This document shows positions 5,341 to 58,455 of a DNA stretch of 64,000 bases, piece by piece. The translations under genes and the position numbers were made by a program. A model generated the notes under the pieces. The model saw nothing but the letters and a program-made list of their open reading frames with translations. It had not been told where the DNA came from and made no database searches. This DNA comes from Eledone cirrhosa (lineage: Eukaryota). The stretch lies in the NCBI GenBank assembly GCA_964016885.1, contig OZ024740.1, forward strand, positions 86,986,001 to 87,050,000. Reading direction: 5' to 3'. Every line of letters starts with the position of its first letter. Position 1 is the stretch's first letter.

Positions 5341-6825
5341 ATGACCAAATCAACACTTAGACTGAGGTGTAGAATCTGTCCCTCCCTCTCTCCCTTTCCT
5401 TTGAAGAAGAACCTGCTGCCAGTTCTGAAACTTGAAGCAAAGTGATATGCTTTGCCCAGGAACATATCTATAGCTGAAGTAATATTTCAATTTGCAACCA
5501 TGTGATAAGTAATTGTAGTCATTGTGCCACTTATTGATAAATACCAAAGATAACTAAATCTAAAATATTTATGGAATTGTTTTTCCAAATCATCTACTTT
5601 AAAACTTTCCAAGCATCAATATTAAAGTGATTAAAAACAGCTACCAGTAATAAAGTAAATTTTATATACAGATAACTATAGTCTTTTGGGGTTTTTTTTA
5701 ATAGAAACTTTCACTGTTAAATGAATGAAGTGTAAACACTTTCGACTAATCCTCTGTACAAAGAAAAATATATGATCACTTTTAATCATTTCAGAGACAT
5801 ATACAGTGTTGCTGTAGTAAACTTCCTCTGTACACATAGCCATAAAAGTAGCCATTGTACAATGAGTAGATAAACATTTCTAAAATACATAAAAGAGAAC
5901 TCTTATATCTTTCTATGTACAGAGCAATAGTAAAAAATGTTTATACTTTCTTCTTTTAGCAGTGAAGGTTTTTATAAAACAAAACTAGTTATATCTCCAA
6001 TGAATTTACCTTAAATCTTTGAATGTACACTGCGTTCTAGCATGAATATTTATTGAGATAATTTACATTGCCAAATGTATGCATATCATGAAAATCAGAC
6101 CAACTTTTACTAAAGCAATACTATATGTATAATATAGCTATTTTCTACATATAGTATTGCTTTAGAAAAAGTTCTCTATACACTGAATCATAAAGGTAGT
6201 TAATTTTTGATGACGAGACAAGAATCTCTGTAATGCACAAAGGTAATTTTGTTGTTTCTCTGTGAACAGAAATAGTTGAAAGTATTTACACTTCATTAAT
6301 TCCATAGGAAAGGCTCCTAATTAAAAAAAAGACTGTAGTTATGTCTCTATGAAATTTAGCTTTAATCGTCTATGTGCTATGGTATAGGATAAATATTTTT
6401 TTGTTTTAAACAAACATTAAGCTACTTTAACTATTGAATGATTTAAATAACATTAGATGCAAATATCTAAATGTTGACATAGTTCAAAATTCTCAAGACA
6501 GACAGAAAGAAAATGAGAATGAATAAGTGACACCAACATTGTTTTCAAATTTTCTACTGCAGCTTAATTGGCTAATAAATTATGAAATAGTATTTTCATG
6601 GCTAAGGTGAAAAAAATCTATCAAGATGTTTTGTAACCTCATTACATATTCCAAAAGACAGTGTAAGAAAAAAATTATAGTTACTGAATATAAACTATGT
6701 TTTAAGAAAATATTTATAGAATACATTGAACATATTTTCTAATTCTAGAACTTTTAAACGTGACAAACTTTCAAGATAGTCATAAAAAGGTGACTTAGAT
6801 GAAAGAAAATAAGAAGGCAACTTAC

Positions 6826-47218: not shown

Positions 47219-47383
47219 AGAAGACCTTTAGTCGTATTTGTGTCTGTAGTGGTCTGGCAGTAGCATTATTAGTAGCTTTGCAAACATAGATGGCGCCATT
47301 ATCTTCAGGCTTAATAATTATATTCAAGTCAGCAGAAGCAATGTTACCAATTATCTTGTAATCAGAATCTAAACGGCGGCGAT
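47219..47383 (-). CDS. Nephrin-like gene: C-terminal half of an Ig domain (RRRLDSDYKIIGNIASADLNIIIKPEDNGAIYVCKATNNATARPLQTQIRLKVF)
   Basis: Not in the ORF track. Acceptor ttttag, donor gtaagt, 165 nt, phase 1-1. Contains the DNGA.Y.C.A.N motif. Confidence 0.92.
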
Positions 47384-48536: not shown

Positions 48537-48876
48537 TCATCATCATTTCATCATTTCATTTTACGTCCACTTTTCCCTGCTTGCAAGGGTGGGGCGGGAA
48601 CTGATTCTGGCTTGATTTCTACAGCTGGATGCCCTTTCTAACACCAACCTCATTTACAGTGAGTGGTGGGTGCTTTTTTGATGTGGCACCTCCACGACCA
48701 CTTTGCAGTGGAATGATATGGCCCATGTCCCTATCATCTCATTTCTACAGCTGAGTAAACTGGAGCAATGTGAAATAAAGTGTCTTGCTCAAGGAAACAA
48801 CACATCACCCGGTCTGAGAATTGAACTCAGAACCTTTCGATTGTAAGGCCAATACTCTAACCACTAAGCCATGTGC

Positions 48877-48974: not shown

Positions 48975-49687
48975 TTGGTGTTAGGAAGGGCATCCAGCTG
49001 TAGAAAACCCGCCAGATAGTCCTATGCGAGCAAGATAATCAATCTTGCCTCAAGTGGGAAAACCCCCGTCCAAACCCATGCAAGCGTGGAACACGGACGT
49101 TAAACGTTGATGATGATGATGATGATGATATATATATATATATAAAAGGTATAGAAGCAAGAAGCCAACAGTATTCCATAATATATATATATATAAATGG
49201 AAAAAATGAAACAAAATTTCATTTCTCACTCTTAGTACGGCTGTTACTTAAATATAAGTATGTATGTATACGTACATGCATATATGTAAACAGACGTACA
49301 GTAGTATGTATATATATATATACATACATACATGCACACATATATATATGTACGTATATACTTTCCTTATGCATATTAACGGCTGATTTGCATATCGAGT
49401 GAGTTAATCGGCTAGACGCACCAAAAACGATAAATGGAAAAAATGAAACGAAATTTCATTTTTCACTCTTAGTACAGCTGTTACTTAAATATAAGTATGT
49501 ATACGTACATACATATATGTATACAGACGTACAGTAGTATATATATATATATACATACATGCACACATATATATATGTACGTATGAATTTACCGAACATT
49601 TATTATAATGCTCGGTTTGTTTGTAAACAAACATCCCGAATTAAGGTGTACAGTGTTTAGCAACCATTGTTGCCCTTTTGTTCAACA

Positions 49688-49756
49688 CTGACAAAGGAAC
49701 AATGTACTAGTTTCAAGCTTATTAGCTATCTTCAGCACTGTATACCTTCCTGCCAG
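49688..49756 (-). ncRNA. Type I hammerhead ribozyme motif, sense to the host pre-mRNA
   Basis: Minus strand reads CTGGCAGGAAGGTATACAGTG-CTGAAGA-T-AGC-TAATAA-GCT-T-GAAAC-TA-GTA^CATTGTTCCTTTGTCAG. Complete core; stem I ACAGTG/CATTGT with a distal extension; palindromic stem III ACTAGT. Confidence 0.75.
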
Positions 49757-49910
49757 ATGATTGAACATCTGAAAGTATATACTTTCAGTTTCATTTTTTC
49801 CATTTATCGTTTTCAGTGCGCCCGGCCGATTAACTCACTCGATATGCAAATTAGGCTGCTCAGCCGTTAATATACATAAGGAAAGTATAAACTTTCAGAC
49901 GTTCAATCCT

Positions 49911-49979
49911 CTGGCAGGAAGGTATACGGTGCTGACGATAGCTAATAAGCTTGAAACTAGTACATCGTTCCTTTGTCAG
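49911..49979 (+). ncRNA. Type I hammerhead ribozyme motif (inverted second copy)
   Basis: CTGGCAGGAAGGTATACGGTG-CTGACGA(49932-49938)-T-AGC-TAATAA-GCT-T-GAAAC-TA-GTA^CATCGTTCCTTTGTCAG. Predicted cleavage after 49962. Confidence 0.75.
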
Positions 49980-50508
49980 TGTTGAACAAATGAGCAACGA
50001 TTGTTGCTAGACACTGTACGGCTTAATTCGGGATGTTTGTTTACAAACAAACCGAGCATTATAATAAATGTTCGGTAAATCCATACGTACATATATATAT
50101 GTGTGCATGTACTGTATGTATATATATACATACTACTGTACATCTGTATACATATATGTATGTATGTATAAATACTTATATATATATATTATAATAGTAA
50201 TAAAAAGGGCGATTTGTTGTCTTCATTACGTTTATGGAGTAGTGACGCGTATTCCGCTATTGATCAGCTCAAGGTTTCATTTGTATCGATCTAGCCTAAC
50301 TCTGAAATTAAAAGCTCGTCGGGCTTCAGTAACTGGATGCTACAATCCCTATATATATATAATAATGAAATACACACACATATTCATATGTATGTGTGTG
50401 TGTGTGTGGTGTCCGCCTTAACAAGTTTTGCTCGATCACCGAAATAGCCAAAATAATTAAAACAATTAAATTAACTCCATAATCAGAGCTATTTATCAAA
50501 TTAATAAT

Positions 50509-50687
50509 TGTTTCTACTTTTGGCCAGCAATTATCCCAGTGTATTACTGGTACTTTATTTTATCGACCTCGTAAGGATGAAAGGCAAAGTTAACCTCGGC
50601 GGGATTTGAACTCAGATCATAAAGGGACGTAACTATGCTGGAAAGCATGGCGTCCGACCCTCTACCGATACTGCCAATCCGCCACCC
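50509..50687 (-). mobile_element. SINE family B with 16-bp TSD TTATCAAATTAATAAT
   Basis: TSD at 50493 and 50688. Confidence 0.88.
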
Positions 50688-50782
50688 TTATCAAATTAAT
50701 AATATGAGGAAATAATAGACAAAAATATACCTATTTCTTCTTCAAAGTCCAGACTGCAGTTTCACTCACACACACACATATA

Positions 50783-50968
50783 GTGAATTGGGAGTATTGG
50801 TCGAGGGTCGGATGCCATGCTTTGCAGTACAGAGTTACGGCCTTTTACATTCTGAGTTCAAATCTCGCCAAGGTTAACTTTGCCTTTCATCCTTAAGGGG
50901 TCGATAAAATAAAGTACCAGTAATGCATTGGATAATTGCTGGCCTTGTGCCAAAAGTAGAAACAATTA
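50783..50968 (+). mobile_element. SINE family B, inverted relative to the copy ~95 bp away
   Basis: A and B boxes present; tail GTAGAAACAATTATT. Confidence 0.85.
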
Positions 50969-52171: not shown

Positions 52172-52576
52172 TTAACCCTGCCAGCCAGAATTCTCTCACC
52201 TCTATCTGTTCAAACTATCTGTAACTTGCTACTCATACTGATGTTAAGGTATTGTTCTCAAAATAGATAACATCAAAATCCCATAGATTTGATATTATAT
52301 GAGATATTATGTGAGATAAAGCCTTTACTGCAAAAATACAATAGTAAATATAGAATAATTGTTTCTACTTTTAGACACAAGGCCACCAATTACCCAGTAC
52401 ATTACTGGTACTTTATTTTATCGACCCCGTAAGGATGAAAGGCAAAGTTAACCTCGGCGGGATTTGAACTCAGACTGTAAAGGGACGTAACTATGCTAGA
52501 AAGCATGGTGTCCAACCCTCTACCGATACTGCCAATTCACCGTAAATATAGAATAATGTAAATGCTAAAGGGTTAA
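52172..52576. mobile_element. piggyBac-type MITE interrupted by a family B SINE (52360-52541, minus strand; TSD GTAAATATAGAATAAT)
   Basis: TTAA|CCCT...AGGG|TTAA. TSD copies at 52344 and 52542. Confidence 0.8.
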
Positions 52577-52609
52577 ACAACAAAATCAAGAACTCCCTAG
52601 ATTGACAGT

Positions 52610-54295: not shown

Positions 54296-54509
54296 TCTAG
54301 GAGAAGGCATCTCAGGAAACTGGGTTAACTCCGATATAAAACCTGCGGCTCAGTAGTTACCGATGATGTTGATCTTTTCTTCTTTTCGGGTTATAGCTAC
54401 TGTCGCTCAGCGAGTGGGATTGGCTCAGTGTAGTCTTTCCTCACTTTAAAAATATTCGTCATGCACAGGCATTGCACGAGTGCATTAATAATTATTAATA
54501 GTGTACTAC

Positions 54510-54545
<36 letters not shown>

Positions 54546-57500
54546 TTTTTTTTCTTTTTTTTTTTTTTTCCAATTCAATGATGTTCCAGAACAATGTAAA
54601 GGAGATAATTGGCAATTTAGGTTCTGGAACAAAAAAGATCATTGGCAATAAGGGCAGGGGCCCCAAGTTATCACAGCCTGGGCCCGCTCGTCATCGTGCC
54701 ATTGTAATAGAGCCAAACAAGGCATTTAGTCTTGGCTGCTGGAACGTACGGACGCTGCTTGACAGGGATTCTTTGGAGCGTCCTGAACGAAGGACCGCTC
54801 TTGTTGCAAAGGAGCTTCGACGTTACGATCTTGACATCGTGGCTTTATCTGAGACGAGGTTAGCTGGAGATGGTCATCTTACGGAATTTTGTGGAGAAGA
54901 TACATTCTTCTGGAAAGGAAGAGATGAAGGAACCAGAAGAGAGGCCGGGGTGGGATTTGCTGTTAAGACTGTACTTGTGAATAAATTAGAAGAATTCCCA
55001 GTAGGGATTAGTGAGCGTCTTATGTCCATGAGAGTTCCGCTGGACAAGGGAAGATATGCTACCCTGGTGAGTGTGTATGCTCCAACTATGAATTCTGTCG
55101 ATGAAGAAAAACTGTCCTTTTACCATGCCTTGAAAGGTGTTCTAAGAAATATCCCTCAGGCAGACAAAGTCATCGTGCTTGGTGACTTTAATGCTAGAGT
55201 GGGTAGGGATTTTAACACATGGAATGTAATCGGAAGGCATGGGGTGGGAAAGTGTAACAGCAATGGTATGCTCCTGCTGCAGATGTGTGAGGAGCTGGAT
55301 CTGTGTGTTACCAACACCATGTTCCAACAAAAGAACAAATTGAAGACCACATGGATGCATCCTGCATCTAAGGAATGGCATCTTTTGGACTACGTCCTAG
55401 TCAGGATGCGTGACAGACAGGATGTGCAGTGTGTTCGTGTTCTTCGTGGAGCTGAGTGCTGGACGGACCACCGCCTGGTACACGCAAAAGTGAAACTAAT
55501 CACCAAACGTAAAATCCGGGCTCCTGGTGTTACCCTGCCCAAAAGATTGAATGCTGCTCGTCTTAAGGATAAAAATGTGAAGAGGACATTGGAAGAAGAG
55601 ATGCAGGCTGCAGATCTTGGTGAGGATTGGCCGACCCTTAAAAAGTCGGTTTATGATGTAGGCAGGCGTGTTCTGGGATTGGTGCAGAGAAAACATCAGG
55701 ACTGGTTTAATGAGAATGATGTACATATAGAAGACTTGTTGGCTGATAAGAGGCGTGCTCTGTCACGCTACTTGACGGCAAAACTACAGGAGAGGAATAC
55801 GTTGTATGAGGAGCTCAGGGATGTAAAATCACGTGTTAGGCGGAGTCTTTCTCAGATGAAGGATCAGTGGTGGAGTGAGAAGGCTGGTGAGATACAAACC
55901 GCGTCTGATTCCAATAACACAAAGCTGTTGTACAGTCTCTTGCGTGAGGTTTATGGACCGTCTTCTCTGGTGACACCGCTTCGCAGCAAGGATGGCAAAG
56001 AACTTCTTCGTGACTCACAGGGAATTCTACGAAGGTGGCGAGAGCAGTTTGATGATCTTTTGAATCAGCCGTCTGTCGTCAGTGAAGATTTCCTCAATCT
56101 CATTCCAGAAAGTCCTGTGAAAGTAGCTCTCGCAGAACCTCCGACGCTTGTGGAGGTTGCAGTGGCTATTTCGAAGCTGAACAGTGGAAGATCTCCAGGT
56201 ATGGATGGCATACATGCTGAGCTCCTACAATATGGTGGTGAGAGACTCCTGCAACATCTGCACTCTTTGTTTGGAAGGATATGGGCTAATGAATCCGTAC
56301 CTGAGGACTGGAGAGATGCAGTAATGGTGGTCTTGTACAAGGGAAAGGGTAACAGGAATGATTGTGGGAACTACAGAGGTATATCATTGCTTTCTGTCGT
56401 AGGGAAAGTTTTATGTAGGGTGCTTCTGGACCGTCTGCTGACACACATTGCAGATTGTGTTCTTCCTGAAAGTCAATCTGGTTTTCGTGCTGGACGCGAC
56501 ACTACTGATATGATCTTCTCAGCCAGACAGCTCCAGGAGAAGTGCATTGAACAAGGCTTGGATCTGTATCAGGTTTTTGTCGATCTGACAAAGGCTTTCG
56601 ATACTGTCAACAGAGATGCATTATGGAAGGTTCTTCAGAAACTTGGTTGCCCTGATAAGTTCCTTGCTTTAGTTAGGTCTTTCCATGACGACATGAAGGC
56701 TTGGGTTAATGTCGGAGCCTATCTCAGTAAAAAATGGAGTGAAACAGGGGGATATTCCAGCACCGACCCTGTTTGCCATATACTTTGCAATGGTTTTCTG
56801 TATTGCATTCAGGAATTGCGAGCATGGTGTTTTCATCCGATATCGAACCTCAGGCAGCATATTTAACATCAGGCGCTTTGCTGCGAAGACAAAAGTATTT
56901 ACATCAATCATAAGAGACCTCTTGTATGCAGATGATTGCGATCTTGTAGCGCACACAGAGAGTGATATGCAGCACATTTTGAATGCATTTTCTGACGCTT
57001 GCACTGCCCTGGGTTTGACTGTCAGTCTCAAGAAAACTGTCGTCATGTACCAACCTGCCCCTAGTAAGCAGTATACTGAACCAAACATCTATGTGTATGG
57101 CAAACGACTTGGAGTGGTTGATCAGTTTGTCTACCTGGGAAGCACTGTCAATCGATACGGCAACCTTGACAGTGAAATCTCACTTAGGATTAGGAAAGCA
57201 AGTGATGCTTTCGGAAAGCTAGAAAGGCAACTCTGGGGTCGGCGAGACATATGCAGGAGGACAAAGGTAAAGGTGTACAGGGCATGTGTACTCTCTTGTC
57301 TTCTTTATGCCTGCGAGACCTGGGTCACATATCAACACCACCTTAAGCAATTGGAGCGTTTCTATCAGATGTGTCTCAGACGGATCCACGGCGTTCACTG
57401 GAGGGACCACATCAGTGATGTCGAGATTTTGGAAAGCTCTATGTGTGACAGTATAGAAGCTCTTGTGCTTAAGCAACGACTCCGTTGGAGTGGTCACCTT

Positions 57501-58455
57501 GCCAGGATGAAGGATTCTAGAATACCAAAACAACTCTTTTGTGGAGAGTTAGTTAAAGGAAAACGACCGCCACATAAACCAAAAAAGAGGTATAAGGATT
57601 CCTTGAAGGCCTCTCTGAAAGACGCTAACATCTCTGCTGATACATGGGAAAATATTGCTGCTGATCGTAATAAATGGAGAAAGACTATATATGAGGGAAA
57701 AGTTGCCTTTGAGGCATCTCGAATCGCACACGAGAAAGTAAAGCGGGATGTGAGGAAGGGCATTGCTGTTGCACTTCCAGACGGCGAGGGTCCTCCTATG
57801 GTGCTGACATGCAGCGTCTGTGCGAGACTCTGCCTAAGCAAAGCTGGACTCGAAAGTCATCTTCGCAGTCATAAAGTAAGACCAGCGGTTGACTACCAGG
57901 CTGCTGTTGGAGATGCTACTCATCATGCTTGCCAAACATGTGGTAGAGAATGTAAATCAGCAGGAGGGCTCAAGCGACATTCAAAAGTACAGAAACTCCA
58001 ACCACAGCCGACTATTCCCAGTGAATGTTTTGGTTGCCGACTCTGTGCAAGACATTTTAGATCATTGGCTGGGCTAAAAAGCCACATTCGATCGCAGCAC
58101 TGTTAGTTGCTATCGTGTGTGTGTGTGTGTGTAGATATGCTTATGTGCGTGCGTGTGTGTGTATATATATATGAATATGTATATTATTATTGTTGTTGTC
58201 GTTATTATTATTATTGCTATTATTATTATTATTATTATTATTATTGTTATTAATGTATGTGTGTGTGTATATGTGTGTGTATGTGTATGTATGTGTGTAT
58301 GTATATATGTATGTATATATATATATATATTTCTTTTTTTTTTATTATTTATTTATTATTATTATTATTTTATTTTATTTTATTTTATTTTATTTTTTTG
58401 TTTTTCTTCTCGTGCAATGGCCATACTCGATAACGAGGGGGCAGCCATCATATAT
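54296..58455 (+). mobile_element. Near full-length RTE (BovB-like) LINE, antisense to the host gene
   Basis: 5' UTR-like CTAGGAGAAGG..AACTCCGA..AAACC, a single APE-RT reading frame, and a 3' UTR ending GGCCATACTCGATAACGAGGGGGCAGCCATC. The boundaries are approximate and no TSD was resolved. Confidence 0.9.
54578..58106 (+). pseudogene. RTE ORF: APE endonuclease, reverse transcriptase and three C2H2 fingers, with one frameshift at ~56710-56717
   Basis: WNVRTL, ALSETR, GDFNARVG, LDY, TDH (APE); YRGISLL, QSGFR, FVDLTKAFD, GVKQG, LLYADD, YLGS (RT); CxxC..H motifs at 57810, 57930 and 58035. The poly-L N-terminus in the ORF track is an (ATT)n artefact. Confidence 0.93.

Follow-up and report, generated by a model that had tools for sequence, protein, structure and literature searches.

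An aged two-armed insertion of an abundant hammerhead retrozyme family in Eledone cirrhosa, with a Penelope-type insertion footprint

Results

The locus

The window (the whole stretch of 64,000 nucleotides of Eledone cirrhosa DNA analysed here) contains part of a minus-strand gene coding for Ig domains; its best relatives, from Octopus sinensis and Argonauta, bear the name nephrin-like. The Octopus sinensis nephrin-like protein is 84% identical to one host exon. The initial annotation had placed a pair of inverted hammerhead ribozymes in a nephrin-like intron, and the placement holds: minus-strand exons lie on both sides of the element, in an intron of ~28 kb. One of these exons is within the window; the one on the other side, ~11.5 kb past the window end, corresponds to aa 402-467 of the homologue. 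The features discussed below are as follows (unit positions are counted from the cleavage site, and sites A and B are recurrent 3' ends of the repeat family).

47220..47378, minus strand: next downstream host exon, nephrin-like, aa 470-522 of the Octopus sinensis homologue
49193..~50184: whole two-armed insertion of the putative retrozyme family, arms divergent (5' to 5'), with limits taken from a BLAST comparison with one of the family's natural tandem arrays
49193..49786, minus strand: left arm, 594 nt; starts at unit ~349, crosses the cleavage site and runs one unit to ~360
49193..49253, minus strand: Penelope-type "tail", ~56 nt between sites A and B, at the left arm end only
49181..49195: (TA)n at the left end, overlapping the last bases of the element
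49783..50184, plus strand: right arm, 402 nt; runs from unit ~253 through the cleavage site to its end at site A (unit ~220)
50178..50189: (TA)n at the right end, overlapping the last bases of the element
49783..49786: arm junction, a 4-nt overlap adjoining an internal palindrome of the unit
49911..49979, plus strand: type I hammerhead motif whose stem I is extended and bulged, predicted to cleave after 49962; agrees with a family haplotype (G.U subtype)
49688..49756, minus strand: type I hammerhead motif, predicted to cleave between 49705 and 49704, with three private changes that all fall on CpG sites

The insertion is ~1 kb long, and the segment originally singled out (49688..49979) is only its middle. 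Its inverted arms comprise 231 nt that are 94% complementary. After reaching unit ~360 the left arm jumps to ~122, which deletes a second hammerhead, and then runs to its 3' end at site B (unit 276); the end pair of the insertion is B+A. There is nothing special about the pair of motifs: each belongs to one of the divergent arms of a single aged insertion, and the repeat inserted is abundant. The inverted orientation is a trace of insertion, present at about half of all loci, and not an arrangement for cleavage as a dimer; the motifs are on opposite strands.

Other repeats are present in the surroundings. The same intron holds a LINE-type element (54434-58106, plus strand), antisense to the host gene, with endonuclease/RT-like frames of 810 and 469 codons which overlap in different frames; it ends in zinc-finger-like motifs (domains were named by eye). 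A tRNA-like Rfam match of 34.1 bits (48814-48871, minus strand), located beside microsatellites, is probably the head of a tRNA-derived SINE. Another dispersed repeat is represented by three copies, 83-90% alike, in direct and inverted orientation (50535-50728, 50830-50955 and 52370-52586).

The two hammerhead motifs

Both motifs can be read directly in the sequence at the places assigned to them (49911-49979, plus strand; 49756-49688, minus strand), and a 31-nt core pattern has exactly two sites in the window versus none in 100 shuffles. Each contains the full core, CUGANGA, GAAA and UH in this order. The helices around it consist of an open stem I of 5 bp plus an extension, a stem II of 3-4 bp and a stem III of 1 bp with a palindromic loop. 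The GUA triplets end at 49962 (plus) and 49705 (minus) as annotated, and both copies were confirmed to have the paired stem I, a U.U (10.1/11.1) at the foot of stem II and a stem III that is palindromic. The copies differ at 3 of 69 positions: N7 and both partners of one stem I pair. The description of stem II was not reproduced: 3 bp and a 6-nt loop were claimed, RNAfold gives 4 bp and a 4-nt loop. Rfam, named earlier as a means of recognising the motifs, returned zero matches to a hammerhead model, either with the gathering score as cut-off or with E allowed up to 10; weak miRNA matches in the Rfam scans stem from the fold-back and microsatellites and were discarded.

The hammerhead fold of the monomer is predicted to lie 8-9 kcal/mol above the minimum-energy fold, an alternative helix being favoured, and cofolding of two copies did not recover the stem III dimer. 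Self-cleavage of the window motifs after GUA is a prediction, and the positions listed above are predicted sites only. In their palindromic stem III region, the dimer model and the low monomer activity to be expected, the motifs agree with the described minimal hammerheads; they differ from this kind by the long bulged stem I and by lacking the highly conserved G10.1-C11.1 pair. Single peculiarities have precedents in axolotl, according to the available text of Cervera and de la Pena (PMC7229834): HHR_Amex1 has a one-pair stem III with a palindromic tetraloop, and HHR_Amex2 has U.U at the base of stem II.

Conservation and covariation

The exchange of G-C for A-U in stem I had been presented as covariation, with the caveat that CpG transitions could produce it by chance. 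Both changes are indeed CpG transitions private to the minus window copy, as is N7=A (1 of 242 family copies). Across 229 copies the stem I CpGs are unchanged in 194 and doubly changed in one, the minus window copy itself. Unpaired single changes are represented by six G>A and nine C>T, so ~0.3 doubles would be expected by chance; with one seen, the caveat is upheld.

The view that structure was kept in the source lineages fares better: subfamily switches are found at the adjacent stem I pair and elsewhere in the unit. The commonest types of this adjacent pair among 141 full copies are U.G (59), G.U (37) and A-U (20). When a 90-pair structure was laid on 14 natural monomers, 96.8% of cells were paired, and 6 of the 90 pairs were changed on both sides, compared to 0-4 in slid controls. 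Cell count and score beat all 500 shuffles, whereas the pair count does not (53 of 500); the monomers were hand-picked, the microsatellite region was omitted and the structure was derived from the same sequences. These comparisons appear to lend the unit structure moderate covariation support. Core columns vary in at most 2.5% of ~240 copies, with the exception of N7, and from core C3 to the triplet just N7 and one loop II base are polymorphic. As the sample was partly anchored on the core, this evidence of conservation is moderate.

An abundant family of non-coding tandem units

The exact 34-nt core is present in 9,371 genome copies and a looser core pattern in 25,979, with no copy of either reversed control. 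Units, measured from one cleavage site to the next, are ~430 nt long (406-538 nt across 50 listed monomers from 29 loci), are arranged head to tail in arrays, have a GC content of 0.36-0.38 and carry an internal (TA)n hairpin. Their coding capacity is confined to short low-complexity stop-to-stop frames, with no frame combining RT and GIY-YIG and no Penelope protein match inside the units. Monomer circles are predicted to be highly self-paired (z -5.6 to -9.5; three natural monomers, 40 shuffles each). Contigs of three sequencing runs, out of five available, also contain family variants: those of one deep run, and a few low-depth contigs in two others. Judged from its sequence, the repeat is a family of non-LTR retrozymes, that is, non-coding tandem units with one type I hammerhead motif each. 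The initial reading of the motifs as type I, dimer-type and related to retrozymes and Penelope thus stands as regards family and architecture; the argument drawn from covariation does not.

Some subfamilies contain near-identical arrays of up to seven units, ending at A or B (L147, L148, L150, L153), and for this reason look young. An exact ABAB array is found at L105 (1885-3722, minus strand), with alternate units differing at 0 of 312 positions and neighbours at 15 of 312. Such a pattern may come from recent duplication of a two-unit block, from an artefact of assembly or from a dimer circle used as template; the last of these, in the form of rolling-circle copying, was set aside, since the 5' partial unit of the array is an exact match to neither type. 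The genome further harbours at least five unrelated hammerhead-like families (L053, L057, L064, L070, L073, L074, L149), of which some sit in the 3' ends of Penelope elements and others lack a visible frame.

Metazoan non-LTR retrozymes of coral, mussel and axolotl (Cervera and de la Pena 2020, PMC7229834), as far as the available text describes them, are likewise short low-GC tandem units in thousands of copies, with one type I hammerhead per unit, no frame and a self-paired predicted circle. The octopus family has units of 406-538 nt with an internal (TA)n hairpin and is described here from DNA. Fixed paired 3' ends and inverted arms, which distinguish it, are absent from that text ("inverted" occurs 0 times), and neither octopus nor cephalopods appear in its main text. 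Searches of the literature by title or abstract found no description of an octopus or cephalopod hammerhead family; supplements may list such motifs.

Insertion footprint

The footprint was defined on the first 60 distinct, consecutive loci of the exact-core list, all on one contig. At these 60 loci the 5' ends of arms are scattered. Their 102 3' ends are distributed among site A (43), site B (42) and other positions (17). Site A is located ~220 nt and site B ~276 nt after the cleavage site, 56 nt apart, and (TA)n abuts 75 of the 85 A/B ends. A divergent inverted arm is present at 29 of the 60 loci (31 pairs), while one pair is convergent. Single arms end at A (17), B (17) or elsewhere (6).

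Divergent pairs consist almost always of one arm of each kind. All 20 classifiable pairs at the 60 loci were A+B (p about 1e-6), 11 further pairs having an unclassifiable end. In a second set A+B was found in 11 of 14 pairs, along with one A+A and two B+B, and three pairs were set aside. A third set gave 5 of 5, three of them from one apparently locally duplicated locus, with six set aside, mostly for alignment breaks in a diverged subfamily; a fourth gave 12 of 12 with three set aside. Altogether, A+B accounts for 48 of 51 classifiable pairs, out of 74 pairs overall. Lengths of A and B arms neither differ nor correlate (21 pairs). At L117, L118 and L110 each arm has sequence that its partner lacks, which means that neither is a fold-back copy. 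Literature searches by title or abstract revealed no description of such paired tail ends, which supplements may list. In the same genome, the autonomous Penelope-like insertions L066 and L073 have a tail on one arm only, ~45 and ~65 nt by eye.

Insertion ends show a bias to (TA)n or AT-rich sequence. Among 31 single-armed insertions, (TA)n stands at the 5' side in seven and a clear non-simple target duplication in one, so that (TA)n is not proven as a pre-existing target. The sole clear duplication, 9 bp, belongs to L103; (TA)n obscures the other cases.

Template of the two arms

Within an insertion, the arms disagree at 62 of the 1,083 polymorphic positions compared (5.7%; 54 pairs), as against 4.2% for tandem neighbours and 42% for random pairs, and shared rare variants are ~24 times commoner within insertions. 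This fits arms that were copied from a single template molecule or from the same source array; gene conversion from arm to arm could also account for it. In the window insertion the arms disagree at 7 of 26 such positions, the largest number among the 54 pairs, which suggests, as far as sequence can tell, two unit variants or a mosaic.

Clean junctions at the cleavage site are rare, 32 of 27,341 copies versus 15 of 25,828 at a control 8 nt upstream; the template would therefore be continuous across the site, as a circle or as a multimer left uncut. A search for a pile-up of 5' ends gave no strong signal that linear monomers, already cut, had been copied; the junctions, at ~2x control, include some small deletions. 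Matches extend across the cleavage site in 23,524 of 27,341 copies (0.860) and beside it in 23,302 of 25,828 (0.902). Exact matches become 14% fewer across the 8 nt upstream of the site and 10% fewer across the next 8 nt, and clean junctions account for little of this 4-point gap in extension.

Resident Penelope-like elements

The genome is rich in Penelope-like elements, with 10,596 GIY-YIG candidates and 54,367 candidates of a further family. The 82 loci sampled (30 GIY-YIG, 14 with long frames, 30 of the further family and eight longer stretches), a small share of all candidates, contained neither an autonomous element with this hammerhead or unit, neighbouring retrozyme insertions apart, nor terminal-repeat (pLTR) homology to the unit. 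The GIY-YIG loci comprise several Penelope families, some with unrelated hammerheads. The very abundant further family (L197, L191-L228) has a C-terminal endonuclease and, in the sampled ends, no canonical hammerhead of its own; judging by its motifs, it may resemble the Hydra clade.

Comparison of five Penelope proteins with 110 loci found no unit running in sense into a Penelope frame. Penelope fragments beside units (L103, L106, L129, L149) are separate or nested insertions. An apparent retrozyme-Penelope chimera at L103 was dismissed: the retrozyme part (5385-6266) is a single-armed B-end insertion into a Penelope-like frame, nested with its 9-bp target duplication and without (TA)n, and the Penelope family concerned shares nothing with the unit. 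Part of this segment is locally duplicated in inverted form.

Discussion

We consider it well founded, if short of certain, that the locus holds one aged insertion of a 430-nt hammerhead retrozyme, likely pasted in trans by a Penelope-like RT-endonuclease and predicted to be inert at its present place. Source arrays would be transcribed as multimers, whose adjacent hammerheads would pair through their palindromic stem III and cleave in dimeric form; ligation may turn monomers into circles. A Penelope-like helper would cut both strands of an AT-rich target. It would start one cDNA from site A and a second from site B, using a template uninterrupted at the cleavage site, and the two cDNAs, both truncated, would be joined head to head. 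Tentatively, we propose a more specific course, which is possible and no firmer than that: a dimeric Penelope enzyme could work on one circular RNA with two RT heads, starting at fixed sites 56 nt apart, one per cut strand, each rolling past the ribozyme site. In the available text of Frangieh et al. (PMC11167929) RNA that has not been processed is the main substrate in vitro, so caution is due over a circle as template.

Insertions of endonuclease-bearing Penelope elements, as described in the available text of Craig et al. 2021 (PMC8557442) and Frangieh et al. 2024 (PMC11167929), show the same set of traits: 5' truncation, partial tandems, an inverted 5' copy, a tail often at one end only and a (TA)n bias. 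Two internal RT start sites bound the tail there as well, both target strands are primed and uncut RNA is usable as template. The octopus family differs by having no protein frame, by a tail of ~56 nt instead of 30-40 nt and by its strict use of one start site of each kind, whereas the consulted part of PMC11167929 reports no difference in start sites between strands in vitro. For vertebrate retrozymes, Li, Clavereau and Pollet (2026, 10.64898/2026.07.22.740005) likewise proposed dependence on Penelope, and monomers, dimers and multimers are spread across the genome, introns included, as they are here. Their case, in the portion available, is based on co-occurrence and on homology to pLTRs across 35 species, none of them a mollusc; ours comes from the insertion footprint, with no pLTR parent found. 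The same portion reports that eight of nine Xenopus retrozyme dimers stayed uncleaved in vitro.

That every footprint is of Penelope type could also mean that the copies are solo pLTR stumps of an autonomous Penelope-like element, tandems arising by local duplication. Xenopus retrozymes are homologous to pLTRs (10.64898/2026.07.22.740005, available part), the ABAB array at L105 is explicable by local duplication, and the search for a parent covered a small part of the Penelope candidates. We nevertheless regard this origin as unlikely, given that none of the 110 loci has a unit leading in sense into a Penelope frame, that nearby Penelope fragments are separate insertions, that arms pass seamlessly from the tail into the next unit, and that young arrays of up to seven near-identical units end at A or B. 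The paired ends bear on another possibility, according to which one priming event would suffice and the inverted arm would be the first arm folded back at the DNA level, either in the course of insertion or later. Arms within an insertion are far more alike than random copies, short overlaps occur at some junctions, and of 31 pairs two form almost perfect palindromes or begin at a common point, all of which such a fold-back would accommodate; yet it predicts equal ends, A+A or B+B, against the 48 of 51 pairs that are A+B, and it is largely refuted by the arms of L117, L118 and L110, which do not contain each other. We hold it to be very improbable.

The left arm is in sense to the gene and the right arm antisense; the motifs being on opposite strands, one transcript carries only one hammerhead in sense, and with one per strand at the locus no monomer is excisable. 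Transcription of the host gene would read the antisense arm first, which would zip the sense hammerhead into a long hairpin: in the predicted fold of the host pre-mRNA, 68 of 70 bases around this hammerhead are paired at long range. So buried, the copy is likely inert as a ribozyme, silenced by base-pairing within the host transcript according to the model. Coleoid cephalopods edit RNA heavily from A to I, and the hairpin could be a substrate for such editing. Co-option, in which the intronic hammerhead would cut the nephrin-like pre-mRNA or the hairpin would serve as a regulated editing substrate, could draw on this background, on the minus copy being in sense with all core bases kept and on the duplex of at least 231 bp which the arms would form. 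With its CpG changes, its internal deletion and 94% agreement between the arms, however, the divergence has the look of normal decay, the predicted fold sequesters the hammerhead fully, and thousands of similar loci exist; we give co-option hardly any credence. Insertion of a retrozyme by Penelope-like machinery is the reading that we retain.

As a locus the insertion is unremarkable, one among many thousands and probably silent, and the weight of our results lies on the footprint of the family. The family matters modestly, for the question of the retrozyme helper and for that of inverted copies in Penelope elements. The earlier case for the enzyme that mobilises animal retrozymes consisted of co-occurrence and pLTR homology; the footprint described here points to Penelope machinery. 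Inverted copies with a one-ended tail are unexplained in Penelope elements, and PMC8557442, in the part available, calls for work on them. The rule of one end of each kind (48 of 51), together with arms that share a subfamily and cross the cleavage site, places a sharp constraint on Penelope insertion. If two RT heads did act on one circle, the Penelope tail, the inverted 5' copy and the retrozyme tandems would be explained in one step, and the family offers thousands of natural products that bear on this proposal.
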